From the IMG/VR virus record IMGVR_UViG_3300027365_000007: a stretch of 64,000 nucleotides of DNA; one strand, written 5' to 3'. The translations under genes and the position numbers were made by a program. Below the pieces are notes generated by a model that had not been told where the DNA came from, did no database searches, and saw nothing but the letters and a program-made list of their open reading frames with translations. Shown here one piece after another: positions 4,460-33,385 of the stretch; positions within the stretch are counted from its first letter, which is position 1, and the number at the start of each line of letters is the position of its first letter. Source of the DNA: a virus (Duplodnaviria > Caudoviricetes).

Positions 4460-5818
4460 TTATTGTTTCTCGCTCCGAGTTTCTACTAGACTAGGAGTTG
4501 TTTCTACTAAACTTAGTGTTATTTCTGTTAAACTAGGCGTTGTTTCTACTAGACTAGGCGTTGTTTCTGTTAAACTAGGCGTTGTTTCTGTTAAACTAGG
4601 TGTGGTCCAAGATAATGCACTGTGATTTATTAATGCACCTGTTAACAAGTTGAGATCATCTGGTATTTTAGTAATTAATGCGTCATTGGAACCTTGTCCT
4701 TCCGAATTTTGATTCCCAACTGCCACATAGCCCCCATCGTTGCTTTGGATAACTGAGTAATAATTATCACTATTTGAACCACCCAATCCTTTTTGACTAA
4801 CCACATTAAGATTGGCGTCGTATTTAGTAATTAATGCGTCGTAATTACCTTGTCCTTCCGAACTTTGATTCCCAACTGCTACATAGCCCCCATCGTTGCT
4901 TTGGATAACTGAGTAATAATTATCACTATTTGAACCACCCAATCCTTTTTGACTAACCACATTAAGATTGGCGTCGTATTTAACAATTAATGCGTCGTAA
5001 CTACCTTGTCCTTCTGATTGCTGATAACCAACAGCCACATATCCACCATCGTTGGTTTGGATAACTGAACGATAATAATCATTAGTTGTGCCGCCTAACC
5101 CTTTTTGACTAACTACGTTAAGATTGGCGTCGTATTTAACAATTAATGCGTCATTGTAACCTTGTCCTTCCGAACCTTGATACCCAACTGCTACATAGCC
5201 CCCATCATTGGTTTGTATAACTGAGTAATAATTATCACTATTTGAACCACCCAATCCTTTTTGACTAACCACATTAAGATTGGCGTCGTATTTAGTAATT
5301 AATGCGTCGTAATTACCTTGTCCTTCCGAACTTTGATTCCCAACTGCTACATAGCCCCCATCGTTGCTTTGGATAACTGAGTAATAATTATCACTATTTG
5401 AACCACCCAATCCTTTTTGACTAACCACATTAAGATTGGCGTCGTATTTAACAATTAATGCGTCGTAACTACCTTGTCCTTCTGATTGCTGATAACCAAC
5501 AGCCACATATCCACCATCGTTGGTTTGGATAACTGAACGATAATAATCATTAGTTGTGCCGCCTAACCCTTTTTGACTAACTACGTTAAGATTGGCGTCG
5601 TATTTAACAATTAATGCGTCGTAACTACCTTGCCCTTCCGAATTTTGATTCCCCACAGCCACATATCCACCATCGTTGGTTTGGATAACAGATCTATAAT
5701 AATCATTAGTTGTGCCGCCTAATGTGCTTACAATCCATGATTTAAATTCCACCACGGTCATACCTTTTGATAATTGAACACTGTTGATCCCAACATTATA
5801 AATTTTTATACCTGACAT
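4460..5818 (-). CDS. tandem-repeat beta-propeller protein (7 x 52 aa), probable virion or adhesin protein
   Basis: Seven near-identical GG..D...SVIQ.NDGGYVAVG...DALI.KYD units followed by TPSL(T/V)ET repeats. Confidence 0.75.
   Translation of the reverse strand: MSGIKIYNVGINSVQLSKGMTVVEFKSWIVSTLGGTTNDYYRSVIQTNDGGYVAVGNQNSEGQGSYDALIVKYDANLNVVSQKGLGGTTNDYYRSVIQTNDGGYVAVGYQQSEGQGSYDALIVKYDANLNVVSQKGLGGSNSDNYYSVIQSNDGGYVAVGNQSSEGQGNYDALITKYDANLNVVSQKGLGGSNSDNYYSVIQTNDGGYVAVGYQGSEGQGYNDALIVKYDANLNVVSQKGLGGTTNDYYRSVIQTNDGGYVAVGYQQSEGQGSYDALIVKYDANLNVVSQKGLGGSNSDNYYSVIQSNDGGYVAVGNQSSEGQGNYDALITKYDANLNVVSQKGLGGSNSDNYYSVIQSNDGGYVAVGNQNSEGQGSNDALITKIPDDLNLLTGALINHSALSWTTPSLTETTPSLTETTPSLVETTPSLTEITLSLVETTPSLVETRSEKQ
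4481..4606 (-). repeat. 21-bp coding tandem repeat, 6 copies
   Basis: TTPSL(T/V)E heptads. Confidence 0.9.
4670..5719 (-). repeat. 156-bp coding tandem repeat, about 7 copies
   Basis: Visible near-identical units; units 2-3 recur as units 5-6 (468-bp period). Confidence 0.95.
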
Positions 5819-13307: not shown

Positions 13308-13427
13308 GATGTGACCGTTGATAAGTATGAAACATCGAAAGCAATTTAGAACAAAAGACAGAGTGAGGAAAAAATTGCATCCTAGATAAAAATCATATAT
13401 GATGTTTTAGAAAACCAAAAAAAGAGC

Positions 13428-13456
13428 TTGACAGGATGTATAAATAGCTTTACACT
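13428..13456 (+). promoter_or_regulatory. sigma70-type promoter of tRNA operon 1
   Basis: TTGACA 13428-13433, 17-nt spacer, TACACT 13451-13456. Confidence 0.85.
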
Positions 13457-13554
13457 ATGTTCAAGATAAAAAATTACAGAGTTTTAGAGACAATGTTGTC
13501 TCTTCTATAAATAACATTAACTTAGAAAGAAAAGAATTTAAGAGAGAAACCAAA

Positions 13555-13674
13555 ATGACTATTTTCGCACAGATGCACAAACAAGAACAGTTTAAGGGAA
13601 GTGAATTCCCCCGTGCAATTGTATCGTCAGATAGCATCTGTGGTTGGTCACAAGATGACTATGAGGGTTTCTAG
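13555..13674 (+). CDS. leader peptide 1 (39 aa, MTIFAQMHKQEQFKGSEFPRAIVSSDSICGWSQDDYEGF)
   Basis: ATG 13555 after AGAGAG, TAG 13672-13674; frame and stop position kept in both copies. Confidence 0.75.
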   Translation: MTIFAQMHKQEQFKGSEFPRAIVSSDSICGWSQDDYEGF

Positions 13675-13713
13675 CTTATGATTAAGTAAACAACACATAA
13701 GCAAAGTAAGATA

Positions 13714-13749
13714 AAGAAACCCTTCTATTGAGAAGGGTTTCTTAGTTTT
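13714..13749 (+). terminator. attenuator terminator 1
   Basis: AAGAAACCCTTCT-ATTG-AGAAGGGTTTCTT 13-bp stem then AGTTTT; the 5' arm can alternatively pair with AGGGTTTCT 13664-13672. Confidence 0.85.
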
Positions 13750-13764
13750 AGATAAAAAGAATTT

Positions 13765-13840: not shown

Positions 13841-13864
13841 ATTTAAAATTTGTGGAAGGTAAGT

Positions 13865-14134
13865 ATGGATGTCAAAGTAAATCCTAAGATTGCTTCATTT
13901 TTAAAATTCGTAATGTGTGGATACATTAAAGTTGGCGATGAAATATGGTCAACAGGGACACGAGGTGAAAAGAAGCTAACGAAGTCACAAATTAAGTCAA
14001 TCGAAAAGACTGGTATTGTAAGTTTTGATTGGCAAGAGGATTGTATTAAGTTACAATCAACGGTAGATTTGGTACGTGTTTCGCCTATTGGCAAAGTACC
14101 ATATAAGACGTTTAACGTAGAATATAACGAATAA
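13865..14134 (+). CDS. hypothetical protein, paralogue of 19847..20128
   Basis: VNP..ASFL.F.M.GY.KVG motif; GGAAGG RBS. Confidence 0.75.
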   Translation: MDVKVNPKIASFLKFVMCGYIKVGDEIWSTGTRGEKKLTKSQIKSIEKTGIVSFDWQEDCIKLQSTVDLVRVSPIGKVPYKTFNVEYNE

Positions 14135-14238: not shown

Positions 14239-14309
14239 GCCTTGGGTTCTGGGAACAGGTTGGGCTCCAAACCTGACCGTGCAGGGTTCGATTCCTTGAC
14301 AAGGTGCCA
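14239..14309 (+). tRNA. non-canonical tRNA-Trp(CCA)
   Basis: 71 nt; 3-nt D-loop, 7-bp anticodon stem, loop CT-CCA-AA, G discriminator, CCA. Confidence 0.75.
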
Positions 14310-14317
14310 TATAAAAT

Positions 14318-14391: not shown

Positions 14392-14424
14392 AACAAAAAA
14401 GTTTGAGAAAATAGAAAAAAGTAC

Positions 14425-14453
14425 TTGACAGGAAGCATAAATAAGATTACACT
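14425..14453 (+). promoter_or_regulatory. sigma70-type promoter of tRNA operon 2
   Basis: TTGACA 14425-14430, 17-nt spacer, TACACT 14448-14453. Confidence 0.85.
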
Positions 14454-14552
14454 TAACTCAAGTATTAAAAAATGCAGAGTTTTAGAGGCAATGTTGTCTC
14501 TTCTATAAATAACATTAACTTAGAAAGAGAAGAATTTAAGAGAGAAACCAAA

Positions 14553-14675
14553 ATGACTATTTTCGCACAGATGCACAAACAAGAACAGTTTAAGGGAAGT
14601 GAATTCCCCCGTGCAATTGTATCTTTTGATCGTGAGATCATGGATAGTGCGAAAGGGGAGATTAAGGGTTTCTAG
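14553..14675 (+). CDS. leader peptide 2 (40 aa, MTIFAQMHKQEQFKGSEFPRAIVSFDREIMDSAKGEIKGF)
   Basis: ATG 14553, TAG 14673-14675; 3' part of track ORF 14472..14675. Confidence 0.75.
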   Translation: MTIFAQMHKQEQFKGSEFPRAIVSFDREIMDSAKGEIKGF

Positions 14676-14716
14676 CTTATGATTAAGTAAACGACACATA
14701 AGCAAAGTAGATAAAG

Positions 14717-14749
14717 AAACCCTTCCACTGAGAAGGGTTTTTTAGTTTT
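14717..14749 (+). terminator. attenuator terminator 2
   Basis: AAACCCTTC-CACTGA-GAAGGGTTT plus U tract; the 5' arm can alternatively pair with AAGGGTTTCT 14664-14673. Confidence 0.85.
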
Positions 14750-14763
14750 AGATAAAAGATTTT

Positions 14764-14840
14764 GGAACGGTAGCTCAGTTGGTAGTAGCAGTGGTGTGAA
14801 GTACCACGTGTCGATGGTTCGAATCCATCCCGTTCTACCA
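14764..14840 (+). tRNA. tRNA-Phe(GAA), unusual anticodon loop
   Basis: GTGGT-GTGAAGT-ACCAC, CCA. Confidence 0.8.
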
Positions 14841-14883
14841 AATTAGGCTTTACGCCATGTTCTTTAAAAATTATTTATATTTA

Positions 14884-14960
14884 GCGGCATTAGTTCAGTT
14901 GGTTAGAACGCTACACTGTCACTGTAGAGGTCGCGGGTTCGAGTCCCGCATGTCGCGCCA
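14884..14960 (+). tRNA. tRNA-Asp(GTC)
   Basis: CTACA-CTGTCAC-TGTAG, CCA. Confidence 0.95.
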
Positions 14961-15075
14961 AATTCAAAACCAAATTTGACAAGGGTTTGGGTAATAAGTT
15001 AGAGTGATATAACCATCACTTACCTTGTCGAAATTTATTTCTATAATTGATAAAAAAGTAAATCAATTATAACGA

Positions 15076-15167
15076 AGTGAAGTGGGTGAGCGGTCAAAAC
15101 CAGCACACTGCTAATGTGCCGACCCGCTTTTGCGGGTCCGAGGGTTCGAATCCCTCCTTCACTGCCA
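15076..15167 (+). tRNA. tRNA-Ser(GCT)
   Basis: GCACA-CTGCTAA-TGTGC, long variable arm, CCA. Confidence 0.9.
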
Positions 15168-15173
15168 GTTTCA

Positions 15174-15250
15174 AGTGGCTTAGCTCAGTTGGCTAGAGCG
15201 GTGCCCTTACAAGGCATAGGTCGATGGTTTGATCCCATCCGCACCGACCA
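15174..15250 (+). tRNA. tRNA-Val(TAC), probably pseudo
   Basis: Anticodon arm intact; acceptor stem largely unpaired; T-loop TTTGATC. Confidence 0.6.
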
Positions 15251-15259
15251 TTTTTTTCT

Positions 15260-15335
15260 GTCCCGTTCGTCTAGTTGGTCAGGACACTGGCCTTTCACGT
15301 CAGTAACAGGGGTTCGAGCCCCCTACGGGACACCA
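15260..15335 (+). tRNA. tRNA-Glu(TTC)
   Basis: CTGGC-CTTTCAC-GTCAG, CCA. Confidence 0.9.
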
Positions 15336-15358
15336 AATTTTGATAGTAACGACTATCT

Positions 15359-15435
15359 AGGAATGTAGCTCAGTTGGTGAGAGCGTTCGGCTGATAACCG
15401 AAAGGACGCAAGTTCGAGTCTTGCCATTCCTACCA
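15359..15435 (+). tRNA. tRNA-Ile(GAT)
   Basis: TTCGG-CTGATAA-CCGAA, CCA. Confidence 0.95.
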
Positions 15436-15470
15436 AATTTTTCACTACCTGATGTATTCCGGGTAGTCTC

Positions 15471-15546
15471 TGGGGTGAGGTGTAATGGTTGCACATCGGC
15501 CTTTTAAGCCGAAAGGAGTAGAGTTCGATTCTCACCACCCCAACCA
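15471..15546 (+). tRNA. tRNA-Lys(TTT)
   Basis: TCGGC-CTTTTAA-GCCGA, CCA; T-stem has a bulge. Confidence 0.85.
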
Positions 15547-15554
15547 TTTTATTT

Positions 15555-15630
15555 GTCTCGTTCGTCTAGTTGGTCAGGACACTAGGCTTTCACCCTAGAA
15601 ATGTTGAGTTCGAGCCCCTACGGGACGCCA
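15555..15630 (+). tRNA. tRNA-Glu(TTC) second copy, degenerate T-arm
   Basis: CTAGG-CTTTCAC-CCTAG; T-stem mispaired. Confidence 0.6.
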
Positions 15631-15713: not shown

Positions 15714-16232
15714 ATGAATTATTTACAAAACCATTGTTATTGTACAGAATCGAACTGGGATAGATCATCTTACAGTTGTAGAAATATGGTTTGGTTCCAT
15801 TCCTATATGAATGAAGACAAAACCGATTGGGCGAACCTTGTTGATGAAAAGAGTGAAAGTTTCATTGACTATAATAGAATGAAAGTCCATAATGAAGTTT
15901 CTGAAGAAATGAATCTTCCAGTAATTACAGATCCTGAGAGGTTTCGAAAGGATGTGGTAAATTTAAAACCACACGTTCTTCGTTGGTTGGAAGATAACGT
16001 TGATGATCGCGATGATGAAGAATGTATTAAAGGCTGGTGTATCGGCTCTATTAAGTATAGATCAAGTAACGATACTATCATGACAATATTCTTTCATCGC
16101 GAAACAGATGCTATGAAATTTATCAAGGAATTTAGTGTAAATAAAAAACCTGTTTTTTACCATAATTATTTTGATGATGTTAAAAAGATTTTAAATCTGG
16201 AAACAGGTAAATATAGGAGTTTCGGAGTGTAG
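15714..16232 (+). CDS. hypothetical protein
   Basis: 172 aa; 3' end overlaps the pseudo-tRNA-Ala. Confidence 0.7.
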   Translation: MNYLQNHCYCTESNWDRSSYSCRNMVWFHSYMNEDKTDWANLVDEKSESFIDYNRMKVHNEVSEEMNLPVITDPERFRKDVVNLKPHVLRWLEDNVDDRDDEECIKGWCIGSIKYRSSNDTIMTIFFHRETDAMKFIKEFSVNKKPVFYHNYFDDVKKILNLETGKYRSFGV

Positions 16233-16298
16233 CGCAGTTGGGAGAGCGATGCCCTTGCAAGGCATAGGTCGTCGGTTAGATCCCGTCCTTCTCCACCA
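16224..16298 (+). tRNA. tRNA-Ala(TGC), probably pseudo
   Basis: ATGCC-CTTGCAA-GGCAT; acceptor out of register; T-loop TTAGATC. Confidence 0.55.
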
Positions 16299-19686: not shown

Positions 19687-19932
19687 ATGAAGATATATGA
19701 TTTATTAGAAGCTCCGGTTCCCAAGCCCCTTGATAATGACATTGAAGATGCTATCGAACATGCTGATACTGAGGGTAATGGATGGGATAGAACAGACTTT
19801 CATCTTGAAAAGATGCTGGACCTGATCCTGAATGAGGTTTACGAATATGCAAGAAGTACAACAAATCAATGTAAATCCAACTATGGCTTCGTTTTTGAGA
19901 TTTATTATGCTAGGTTATCACAAGGTTGGTAA
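19687..19932 (+). CDS. small protein with MKIYDLLE N-terminus
   Basis: GGAG RBS; 3' end overlaps the next gene. Confidence 0.55.
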   Translation: MKIYDLLEAPVPKPLDNDIEDAIEHADTEGNGWDRTDFHLEKMLDLILNEVYEYARSTTNQCKSNYGFVFEIYYARLSQGW

Positions 19933-20128
19933 CACAGTATGGACTACTCGACAGGACGGTAGTAAAGTACTTACAAAGACTCAATTGACATCTCTAGAGA
20001 ATAAGGGACTTATTGTTATTGGCTGGTATCCAGACAAGGCAGTGTTAGAGTCTCATGTAAATATAGTTGCTGTCGAACCTATGGGATTGAAAGTGCCATA
20101 TAAAAAATTTAAAGTAACATACTATTAG
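19847..20128 (+). CDS. hypothetical protein, paralogue of 13865..14134
   Basis: GAGG RBS before ATG 19847; shared motif. Confidence 0.7.
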   Translation: MQEVQQINVNPTMASFLRFIMLGYHKVGNTVWTTRQDGSKVLTKTQLTSLENKGLIVIGWYPDKAVLESHVNIVAVEPMGLKVPYKKFKVTYY

Positions 20129-20423
20129 ATAAAACAAATTATTATAATAATTTTTTAAGGTATATGATAGCTTAGGTTTGAGCAAAAATGTATCTAGTTA
20201 AGAGGACTATATTATGCCAAGTAAAAAAAGAATTAAACAGTTTTTTCGATGAAGTACTTATTGATGAGATACTTCAGTCCCCAGAAAACGATAATGTGAA
20301 AAAATAAGCTATACACTGGCTGTTAGTGTTGCTAGTTTTATTATTTATGGTTATACTTTAGAATATATACTGGACATATGTGCTATTCCAATTCGATTCC
20401 TGCCATATGTGATTTTTATTTTA

Positions 20424-20487
20424 GCCCAAGTAACCGTGTCTGGCTACGAACCAGTTAAGCGTAGTTGGAGTTGAAAATGTAGGTTCG
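20424..20487 (+). pseudogene. truncated non-canonical tRNA-Arg(ACG)-like gene
   Basis: CTGG-CTACGAA-CCAG arm; sequence breaks off at GTAGGTTCG immediately before the HNH gene. Confidence 0.45.
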
Positions 20488-20526
20488 TAAGCATAAATAC
20501 AGGTATATGATCGAGAGAATATCTGT

Positions 20527-31927: not shown

Positions 31928-33385
31928 TGGGTATGAAACAGTTAACATAATTATACACTGTTTACCCATTATTATAACTTTTATATCACATATAAATATT
32001 ATTACTAAATAATTAAGAATAACTATTACAAAAACAATGATTTTAGTAGAAAGACACCAAATAGACAAAAAGCACCCATCCTTCAAGGAATGCGATTTCT
32101 TGAGTTATATAAGCAAAAACCTATATAATTCAGCTATCTATCATATACGTCAGTTCTATTTCAATAACAACACTTTTCTTAATCCTAAAGTAGTAAATGG
32201 TAAAACTATAAACTACTGGGTATTTGATAAAACCCAATTATATCACGAACTCAAGGACACGAAAGAATTCCGTACCAACGAGCACCCCGAATACAACGGA
32301 TATTCATGTAACACCAAAATCCTAAAACAAACTATGATACAAGTAAGTAGAGTATTCAAGGGATACAAGAAAGCACTAAAGACGTACTCTAATAACCCAT
32401 CAAAGTTTACAGGAAGACCTAAATTGCCAACTTATAAACAAAAGAATGGTAGAAATGAAGTGACAGTGCCAAAAGAAGCTATCTCTTTTGTTAAACACAA
32501 AGGTTATGCTAAAATAGCAAATACGGACATATTTGTTAAATTAGTAAATGTAACCGAAGAGACAACAAAAGAAATAAAGATAGTACCACGAGCCAGCCAT
32601 TATGAAATATTGGTTAGCTATGAAGCACCAGAAGCACAATTAAAACCGCAAAGCGGCAAACTAGCAGGTATAGATATTGGATTGAATAATTTAGTGGCGT
32701 TATCTTCAAATGATATAGCTATGAAGCCATCTCTCATTAACGGACGACCACTAAAATCAATCAACCAATACTATAATAAGAAAGCTGCTAAAATGAAGTC
32801 CTTATTGCCGAAAGATGTTTTTTGGAGTAAGGCACTTAGTCAATTGACTAGGAAGAGAAACAACAAAGTTCAAACTGAAATGCACAACATATCTACATAT
32901 ATTGTCAATGAATTAATCAAACACAATATAGATACATTGATAGTAGGTAATAATAAAGGAATGAAACAAGGAATTGGTATTGGTCGAAAAAATAACCAAA
33001 ATTTTGTGTCAATTCCTTTCCATAAGTTACGTAGGATGTTAGAATACAAATGCAAAAAGGCAGGTATCCATTACATAGAGACAGAGGAAAGTTATACCAG
33101 CAAGTGCAGTTTCCTTGATATGGAAGATATGCGTAAGCAGTCAGTATATAAAGGGAATAGAACACATAGGGGCTTGTTTATTGACTCGAATGGTAATGAG
33201 ATCAATGCTGACTTGAATGGAAGTTTGAACATAATAAGAAAAGTAGCTGGAAATGCATATTTTGTTTATCAAAATACGTCTGATCTAGTAGAGGGCTATG
33301 CCGTTAGTCCATTTAAAGTCACTGTCTAGTAATAGAATATACTTTATAAAGCAATTTGATATAATTTATATATTGAATTTCAAAC
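31928..33385 (+). mobile_element. IS200/IS605-like TnpB-only element (ends approximate)
   Basis: Left hairpin TGGGT..AAACAGT/ACTGTTT-ACCCA at 31928-31968; possible right end TTCAAAC near 33385; no TnpA. Confidence 0.45.
32037..33329 (+). CDS. tnpB: TnpB/InsQ RNA-guided endonuclease
   Basis: SKNLYN HTH, GIDIGLNN RuvC-I, EESYTSKC, NADLNGSLNI. Confidence 0.9.
   Translation: MILVERHQIDKKHPSFKECDFLSYISKNLYNSAIYHIRQFYFNNNTFLNPKVVNGKTINYWVFDKTQLYHELKDTKEFRTNEHPEYNGYSCNTKILKQTMIQVSRVFKGYKKALKTYSNNPSKFTGRPKLPTYKQKNGRNEVTVPKEAISFVKHKGYAKIANTDIFVKLVNVTEETTKEIKIVPRASHYEILVSYEAPEAQLKPQSGKLAGIDIGLNNLVALSSNDIAMKPSLINGRPLKSINQYYNKKAAKMKSLLPKDVFWSKALSQLTRKRNNKVQTEMHNISTYIVNELIKHNIDTLIVGNNKGMKQGIGIGRKNNQNFVSIPFHKLRRMLEYKCKKAGIHYIETEESYTSKCSFLDMEDMRKQSVYKGNRTHRGLFIDSNGNEINADLNGSLNIIRKVAGNAYFVYQNTSDLVEGYAVSPFKVTV

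Follow-up and report, generated by a model that had tools for sequence, protein, structure and literature searches.

Two related leader units precede tRNA genes in a jumbo phage

The stretch of 64,000 nucleotides (nt) analysed here, IMG/VR virus record IMGVR_UViG_3300027365_000007 (Caudoviricetes; the whole stretch is called the window), is AT-rich, with 34.6% G+C, and originates from a large (jumbo) phage whose nearest named relative, a distant one, is Salicola phage SCTP-2 (26% identity across a protein of 739 amino acids (aa)). It holds 17 tRNA genes according to ARAGORN, and the Rfam tRNA model matches it at 18 places. Leader 1 (13404-13757) and leader 2 (14401-14757), two units about 355 nt long, are 95-100% identical to each other outside a core of 39 nt (leader 1) or 42 nt (leader 2), in which identity is only about 50%. 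Each is built in the same order: a TTGACA-17-TACACT promoter, a 5' hairpin, a TATAAATA box, an open reading frame (ORF) of 39 or 40 codons, a second hairpin, an intrinsic terminator and, about 19 nt on, a tRNA gene. This analysis concerns leader 2, the variable core of its ORF (the cassette) and the control that the leader may exert over the tRNA genes behind it. The features are as follows.

14425-14453, plus strand: sigma-70-type promoter TTGACA-17-TACACT (pattern scan)
14484-14501, plus strand: 5' hairpin AGAGGC-AAUGUU-GUCUCU (folds; compensatory changes)
14504-14511, plus strand: TATAAATA box, T4-late-promoter-like, invariant in five of five aligned leaders while its flanks vary
14542-14549, plus strand: segment A (GAGAAACC), which overlaps the ribosome-binding region and pairs with the ORF end
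14553-14675, plus strand: leader ORF 2, 40 codons and TAG, open in all relatives
14621-14645, plus strand: cassette hairpin with a GNRA loop, UGAUC-GUGA-GAUCA and outer pairs (folds; relatives)
14625-14666, plus strand: the 14 variable codons of the cassette (FDREIMDSAKGEIK); identity to leader 1 about 50%, with flanks on either side 95-100% identical
14664-14673, plus strand: segment B (AAGGGUUUCU), spanning the final codons of the ORF and the T of the stop TAG (14673-14675)
14675-14703, plus strand: hairpin 2 (GCUUAUG ... CAUAAGC), its stem invariant and its loop variable in five leaders
14714-14749, plus strand: intrinsic terminator, a stem of 12-13 base pairs and a U tract; stem conserved, loop variable
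14764-15629, plus strand: tRNA run of operon 2 (ARAGORN, Rfam)
14976-15005, plus strand: promoter-like TTGACA-18-TAGAGT within the run, in the gap between Asp and Ser (pattern scan)
13428-13749, plus strand: leader 1, paralogous to leader 2 (promoter; ORF 13555-13674; cassette 13627-13665; terminator 13714-13743)

Leader 2 thus has the anatomy of an attenuator, with a short ORF and its ribosome-binding site (AAGAGAG, 8-10 nt 5' of the AUG) after a strong promoter, and an intrinsic terminator before the tRNA genes. Only about 19 nt separate the terminator stem from the first of these, too few to hold a promoter. A promoter function of the TATAAATA box is inferred only. No Rfam family matches the leader, and there was no T-box match either at E up to 1 or at the gathering threshold; the leader peptide has no PHROG match.

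Relatives of the leader in other contigs

The closest relative, L002, is a JGI contig of 8957 nt that is 99.93% identical to the window (6 differing positions). L009, an ENA contig of 1871 nt, carries a full leader with the cassette IDREINDSAEVEIK, followed by tRNAs Gly TCC, Phe, Ala-like, Ile, Lys, Asp and Glu. G002, an IMG/VR contig of 218 kb that is 73% complete, has a single leader with the cassette FNREIIDSAEVEIK, behind which lie Gly, Phe, Ala-like, Ile, Lys and Glu; past an antisense ORF come Ser GCT and an Arg(ACG)-like gene, and further on Pro, Gln, Met, Asp and Asn, with ORFs between them. In L009 both hexamers of the leader 2 promoter are retained, while G002 keeps the -35 hexamer and has TAGTCT at -10. 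All four leaders (two in the window, one each in L009 and G002) stand directly before a tRNA gene. More variants were found on low-depth contigs from one subsurface and three freshwater metagenomes; one of them ends ...DSA-EKECWE-GF-stop and another runs ...GSE-QFPCMNVSFN.

DNA-pattern scans for the leader returned L009 and G002 only, and a scan of bacterial genomes returned nothing. Peptide-based scans of viral and metagenome contigs gave no relatives of the leader ORF, and synteny through the neighbouring 172-aa protein led only to phages without the leader unit. No further copy lies elsewhere in the window; a degenerate third leader at 20120-20310 was considered and found unsupported.

The leader ORF appears to be kept open while its peptide drifts

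The leader ORF recurs in four leaders besides leader 2 and is open in all relatives, with an invariant start codon and ribosome-binding region and a conserved stop, and the conservation starts exactly at AGAGAGAAACCAAAAUG. Four length changes, taken as independent, are all multiples of three: cassette 1 versus cassette 2, one codon near codon 12, a CAA after codon 17, and the EKECWE replacement. About 29 codons have been replaced with no stop arising, and the joint chance of this and the in-frame indels is about 0.002. The differences between leader 2 and L009, counted manually on the alignment, fall on codon positions 1:2:3 as 6:4:7, a pattern in keeping with selection on the frame and not on the peptide. 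F, K and N all occur at codon 4, and hypervariability marks codons 19-22. Neither purifying selection on amino acids nor protein-family membership was seen for the leader ORF, and a search of 5.8 billion proteins found three leader proteins, two of them the window's own and all from the same locus. As judged from these alignments, the ORF is selected to stay open, with its peptide unconserved. The comparison with relatives thereby supports translation of the leader ORF, and it supports the attenuator-like anatomy as well.

Leader 2 may act as a ribosome-dependent attenuator

Segment B repeats the 3' arm of the terminator (segment D) and is, as a result, a perfect 10-nt complement of the 5' arm (segment C); in leader 1 the complement is 9 nt long. 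In shuffled sequences such a complement was met with P 0.0007-0.003 anywhere upstream, and with P of about 0.00015-0.0002 at the ORF end. Segment A, in turn, pairs with 14666-14673 in the minimum-energy and consensus folds. When the transcript as it stands before the terminator 3' arm emerges was folded under a 27-nt ribosome mask, the antiterminator (B:C) had a predicted probability of 0.4-0.98 for a ribosome positioned up to codon 34, and was abolished for one at codons 35-41. This folding supports a translation-rate sensor, without singling out the cassette codons.

On this model, a ribosome at the last codons or the stop would cover B during transcription of C and D, the terminator would form, and the tRNAs would be left unmade. 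A ribosome delayed before about codon 34 would leave B free to pair with C, and the ensuing read-through would yield more tRNA. The cassette makes up the 3' half of the ORF, and its enrichment in codons of the downstream tRNAs would suit a feedback loop in which a shortage of these tRNAs raises their own synthesis. Taking sequence and folding together, we lean towards the view that leader 2 is a ribosome-dependent transcription attenuator gating phage tRNA genes; that the leader element is functional in one way or another is very likely.

Several observations weigh against this view. No RNA run contains the locus. The terminator always prevails at equilibrium (0.99); like a classical attenuator, the switch would have to be kinetic, and the model rests on assumed kinetics. 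Segments A, B, C and D are invariant, hence there is no covariation for the alternative pairings. A stall at nearly any codon predicts read-through, so that the cassette is not uniquely placed, and in leader 1 the antiterminator is predicted even when no ribosome is present (0.98). In addition, the promoter-like site at 14976-15005, if active, could let six of the eight tRNAs escape the attenuator.

It should also be considered that an ordinary small gene for a 40-aa peptide, followed by a leaky terminator and constitutive read-through into the tRNA genes, would look similar; the overlap in codons would then be a product of chance and composition. Promoter, ribosome-binding site, ORF and terminator do make a complete gene, and the two comparable units of a distant jumbo phage described below, whose ORFs of 52 and 58 aa have partly hydrophobic N-termini, could be plain small genes as well. 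We nevertheless consider this explanation unlikely, as the peptide drifts near-neutrally (6:4:7), matches no family and is represented by three proteins among 5.8 billion, and as a stop codon embedded in a 10-nt copy of a terminator arm would be left unexplained.

Short hairpins are conserved, the long stem is not

The earlier note on this DNA had claimed that cassette 2 folds into a long stem, preserved while the sequence was replaced. The stem UCCCC...UGAUC-GUGA-GAUCA...GGGGA is indeed the local minimum-energy fold (-20.8 kcal/mol, z -3.1); however, in the fold of the whole leader the inner cassette hairpin alone persists, and it is only this hairpin that relatives conserve. The inner part of the claim thus stands, while the outer helix does not, as leader 1 lacks a comparable long stem (-12.4 kcal/mol, z -0.3). 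We rejected the long stem as a conserved feature because the outer UCCCC:GGGGA helix is disrupted in L009 and G002, where GGG has become GUG. Within the hairpin, one pair is G-C in leader 2, G.U in L009 and A-U in G002, with a GNRA loop throughout; a hairpin of different sequence occupies this site in leader 1. The cassette hairpin might be of the pause or closing type. In the 5' hairpin, five pairs show compensatory changes in L009 and G002. Several of the RNA elements can thus be taken as real. A pairing of each cassette with ORF codons 4-8, seen in minimum-energy folds, was discarded, as it is lost in the same two relatives.

Strong structure throughout the two leaders (z -4.6 and -5.8), covariation that lies in hairpins and not in the peptide, and minimum-energy folds in which each cassette pairs with the conserved 5' portion of the ORF would also suit a structured, non-coding 5' leader on the tRNA precursor, serving stability or processing or released by RNase P as a small RNA, in which the ORF is fortuitous. 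We find this quite improbable in view of the in-frame indels and lack of stops (about 0.002) and of the invariant start codon and ribosome-binding region; moreover, the long-range cassette pairings are lost in L009 and G002, and the leader belongs to no Rfam family.

Cassette codons overlap with the tRNA run behind them and may be tuned to it

The genes of operon 2 are the following.

14764-14840, plus strand: tRNA-Phe GAA
14884-14960, plus strand: tRNA-Asp GTC
15076-15167, plus strand: tRNA-Ser(GCT)
15174-15253, plus strand: Val-like tRNA
15260-15335, plus strand: tRNA-Glu TTC
15359-15435, plus strand: tRNA-Ile GAT
15471-15546, plus strand: tRNA-Lys TTT
15554-15629, plus strand: tRNA-Glu TTC

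The earlier note had listed the same operon and proposed that the cassette of leader 2 is a sensor matched to it. Phe, Asp, Ser GCT, Glu, Ile, Lys and Glu are all in place, whereas the Val gene is degenerate: ARAGORN recognises this Val(TAC)-like gene at a lowered threshold only, Rfam matches it in part (model positions 8-63), and by manual pairing no more than three of the seven acceptor-stem pairs form; this gene has a paralogue in Ala(TGC) at 16224-16298. The Arg, Met and Ala codons of the cassette had been assigned to genes further downstream; Ala (16224) and Met (22091) are present, while the supposed Arg(ACG)-like gene amounts to a tRNA-like piece (about 20417-20490) that adjoins an HNH gene, was missed by ARAGORN and Rfam, and was recognised only via the intact G002 copy. 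Leader 1 is followed by Gly TCC, Ser(TGA), Trp-like and Cys.

The 14 variable codons (14625-14666) are exactly as had been claimed; by standard wobble rules, operon 2 tRNAs read ten of them, including the Ser codon AGT, which suits the anticodon GCT. Against the codon background of the 72 long ORFs of the window, in which the operon 2 set makes up 38.3%, ten of 14 gives a binomial P of 0.012 and is reached by 1.5% of the 14-codon windows in phage ORFs. Cassette 1 contains four codons of its own run out of 13 (background 0.065, P about 0.01). The two cross-comparisons of a cassette with the other operon are unenriched (P 0.38 and 0.6), and the true operon split ranks 8th of the 330 partitions of 11 tRNA species into 4 + 7. 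In the relatives, the L009 cassette matches its own run in 10 of 14 codons (P 0.008), and that of G002 the first six tRNAs in 9 of 14 (P 0.006) or the first eight in 11 of 14 (P 0.0008); as these two cassettes and that of leader 2 are homologous, this is one observation set against three operon layouts and not three observations. Cassettes of this type precede differently ordered tRNA runs in L009 and G002, and the enrichment holds in all three phages.

A number of points speak against tuned codons. The match to operon 2 is nominally unusual (P about 0.012-0.02), but once the Asp and Ile codons that leader 1 also has are left out and only differing codons are counted, it is 8 of 12, with P 0.044. 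The 24 codons common to both leaders include 11 operon 2 codons (P 0.29); leader 1 hence samples Phe, Lys, Glu and Ile codons too, and specificity would be poor. Furthermore, GAU, CGU, GAG and AUC form the stem and GNRA loop of the conserved hairpin, which dictates codons (GAU, AUC, GAG), and the match is thus partly structural. Cassette 2 contains no tandem codon runs. As regards the relatives, the Gly codon occurs ahead of a run that lacks tRNA-Gly and is missing ahead of runs that begin with it, a Val codon was gained without a Val tRNA, and L009 drops a Phe codon though tRNA-Phe remains; substitutions among the three cassettes, as aligned, do not follow tRNA content.

The claim that the orders F-D and E-I-K echo the gene order did not hold, as the longest common subsequence has P 0.05-0.07 and the echo is not conserved in L009 and G002. 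A post hoc adjacency statistic gave five of the 13 adjacent cassette pairs (FD, EI, DS, EI, IK) as tRNA neighbours, with P of about 0.002; L009 and G002 have a single matching pair each, despite their near-identical cassette. With relatives that lack the echo and no mechanism for it, we treat it as coincidence.

What remains of the sensor claim is an enrichment found in all three phages carrying the cassette, set against a match in the window that is only nominally significant and against substitutions that show no fine tracking. It is possible, though we hold this more in doubt than in favour, that the cassette codons are tuned to their own tRNAs, such that depletion or cleavage of these would stall the leader ribosome, open the terminator and lead to the replenishment of just these tRNAs. 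A loose correlation plausibly fits the data as well as tuned codon choice. A link of the leader to anticodon nucleases is unsupported and stays conjecture.

Duplication and probable patch exchange among the leaders

Gly is the first tRNA after the leader in both G002 and L009, which marks the junction of leader 1 with Gly as the ancestral one and that of leader 2 with Phe as new. From this comparison, the ancestral cassette would appear to have stayed, after duplication, with Phe, Asp, Glu, Ile and Lys, while the copy heading Gly-Ser-Trp-Cys seems to carry a new cassette, with Ser, Cys, Gly and Trp codons. Such an outcome is a prediction of the sensor idea, but it is a single event.

Five of the six differences between L002 and the window fall at 13609-13619, in a 14-nt patch of the leader 1 ORF (codons 19-22) that changes PRAI to SCGR. 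The same codons read PCAR in G002 and PGAP in L009, and this site would seem to be a hot spot of recombination or hypervariability. We rejected the change in L002 as independent support for sensing of Ser, Cys and Gly: G002 has PCAR although none of the tRNAs found on its contig, which is 73% complete, is for Cys, and one metagenome variant joins SCGR to a leader of the cassette 2 type. From the sequences compared, the patch looks like short-tract recombination between leader alleles.

Mobile cassettes made up of a promoter and a stem-loop have been described for T4-type phages, and the leader might be one, promoting recombination and shuffling of tRNA modules instead of regulating them; this would agree with the 95-100% identical flanks around a replaced core, with the patch in L002, which is partly G002-like, with the mosaic leader variants in metagenomes and the reshuffled tRNA order between relatives, and with the conserved flanks and unrelated ORF bodies of the distant units described in the next section, but we find it very doubtful, as the conserved open frame and the stop inside the antiterminator strand are left unexplained, and it is in any case compatible with an attenuator and no exclusive alternative.

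A distant jumbo phage has units of similar layout

The distant jumbo phage IMGVR_UViG_3300027834_000005 (G001; 347 kb, 36 tRNA matches) contains two units, L003:5383-5670 and L003:11070-11375, each with a perfect sigma-70 promoter, a small ORF and a terminator before a tRNA cluster. They resemble the leaders of the window in having the same layout, conserved flanks and a variable ORF body, and each ORF holds a CGGGUU copy of the terminator 3' arm, 61-62 nt before the 5' arm. However, the sequences are unrelated to those of the window leaders, the N-termini look like those of small membrane or secreted peptides, and the ORFs stop before the conserved 3' part, so that a terminating ribosome would leave the putative antiterminator strand uncovered. 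The cluster behind ORF 1 (52 aa) is Glu, Gln, Gln, Leu, Leu, Leu, Glu, Arg and Glu, and 17 of the 51 codons of this ORF belong to the cluster's set, where the background is 17% (P 0.004-0.007); ORF 2, compared in the same way, is unenriched (P 0.23). A Fisher combination of the four unit-level P values gives 2e-4, a figure to be heavily discounted because operon, wobble and cassette limits were chosen after seeing the data.

Other features of the tRNA regions and of the window

The promoter-like site in operon 2 lies in a structured Asp-Ser spacer of 115 nt (14961-15075), where it is enclosed by an inverted repeat; the spacer is absent from L009 and G002. At the place corresponding to the Val-like gene of the window, these two relatives have an Ala(TGC)-like gene that is fitted better by the tRNA-like ends of the transfer-messenger RNA model than by the tRNA model. 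The Trp(CCA)-like gene behind leader 1 (14239-14312) has a cloverleaf fold with an anticodon stem of 7 base pairs and a 3-nt D loop, and was missed by ARAGORN and Rfam. In G002 the promoter type of the leaders stands straight before another tRNA with the leader absent; the leader-terminator unit is therefore an add-on. Two sequences, L012:520-825 (in G002) and L007:1480-1917, contain tRNA genes split by inserts of 240-400 nt that are group I intron-like; the interrupted gene of G002 sits directly behind a leader-type promoter. In G001, L003:13013-13056 and L003:13163-13206 carry a hammerhead-ribozyme-like motif (CUGAUGAG ... CGAAAC) in the gap between tRNA-Phe and tRNA-Tyr.

Of two paralogous ORFs of the window without a family match (13850-14134, 94 aa; 19832-20128, 98 aa), one sits within tRNA operon 1, between tRNA-Gly and tRNA-Ser. 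A 430-aa ORF at 32037-33329 has IS605 OrfB and Cas12f-like TNB domains, which makes it a TnpB-type element in a phage. There are self-similar stretches at 4667-5722, within a 452-aa ORF on the minus strand (4460-5818), and the first 226 nt of L002 match six more offset stretches, in steps of multiples of about 156 nt, at 80-88% identity.

Comparison with known systems and significance

In its promoter-proximal short ORF, its intrinsic terminator and the alternative pairing at the ORF end, leader 2 is like trpL, hisL, leuL, thrL, pheL and the leader of pheST (pheM). As in these enterobacterial attenuators, it would be the ribosome position that decides, and the leader codons may relate to the product; in pheM, Phe codons are tied to the charging of tRNA-Phe. 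The phage leader differs from them in that it would gate tRNAs and not enzymes or synthetases, with a mixture of six to seven kinds of codon, in that the strand sequestering B lies 5' of the start codon, over the ribosome-binding site, and in being phage-borne and duplicated, with a 14-codon core swapped. T-box riboswitches likewise let the status of a tRNA choose between terminator and antiterminator upstream of translation-related genes; they, however, bind the tRNA directly and need no translation, whereas the phage leader has a conserved ORF and no T-box match. Full-text literature searches gave no description of leader-peptide control of tRNA genes.

Phage tRNA genes have been described as counter-measures to tRNA-targeting defences (PMC11555353). 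A setting of this kind offers a reason for a phage to want its tRNA supply on demand; that work, however, deals with the tRNAs themselves and not with regulation by a leader, and nothing in the window ties the leader to a nuclease.

Little is known of how phages regulate their tRNA genes. At about 300 nt the leader element is small and self-contained, and variants of it occur naturally, two cassettes within one genome and at least four others in metagenomes. If the leaders are attenuators, a textbook mechanism would extend from amino-acid operons to tRNA genes, and phages could read the translation state of the host, which may bear on codon mismatch, host shut-off and tRNA-cleaving defences. 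If, beyond this, the cassettes are codon-matched sensors, they would form a self-correcting circuit of tRNA supply and the first leader-peptide attenuator known for tRNA genes.

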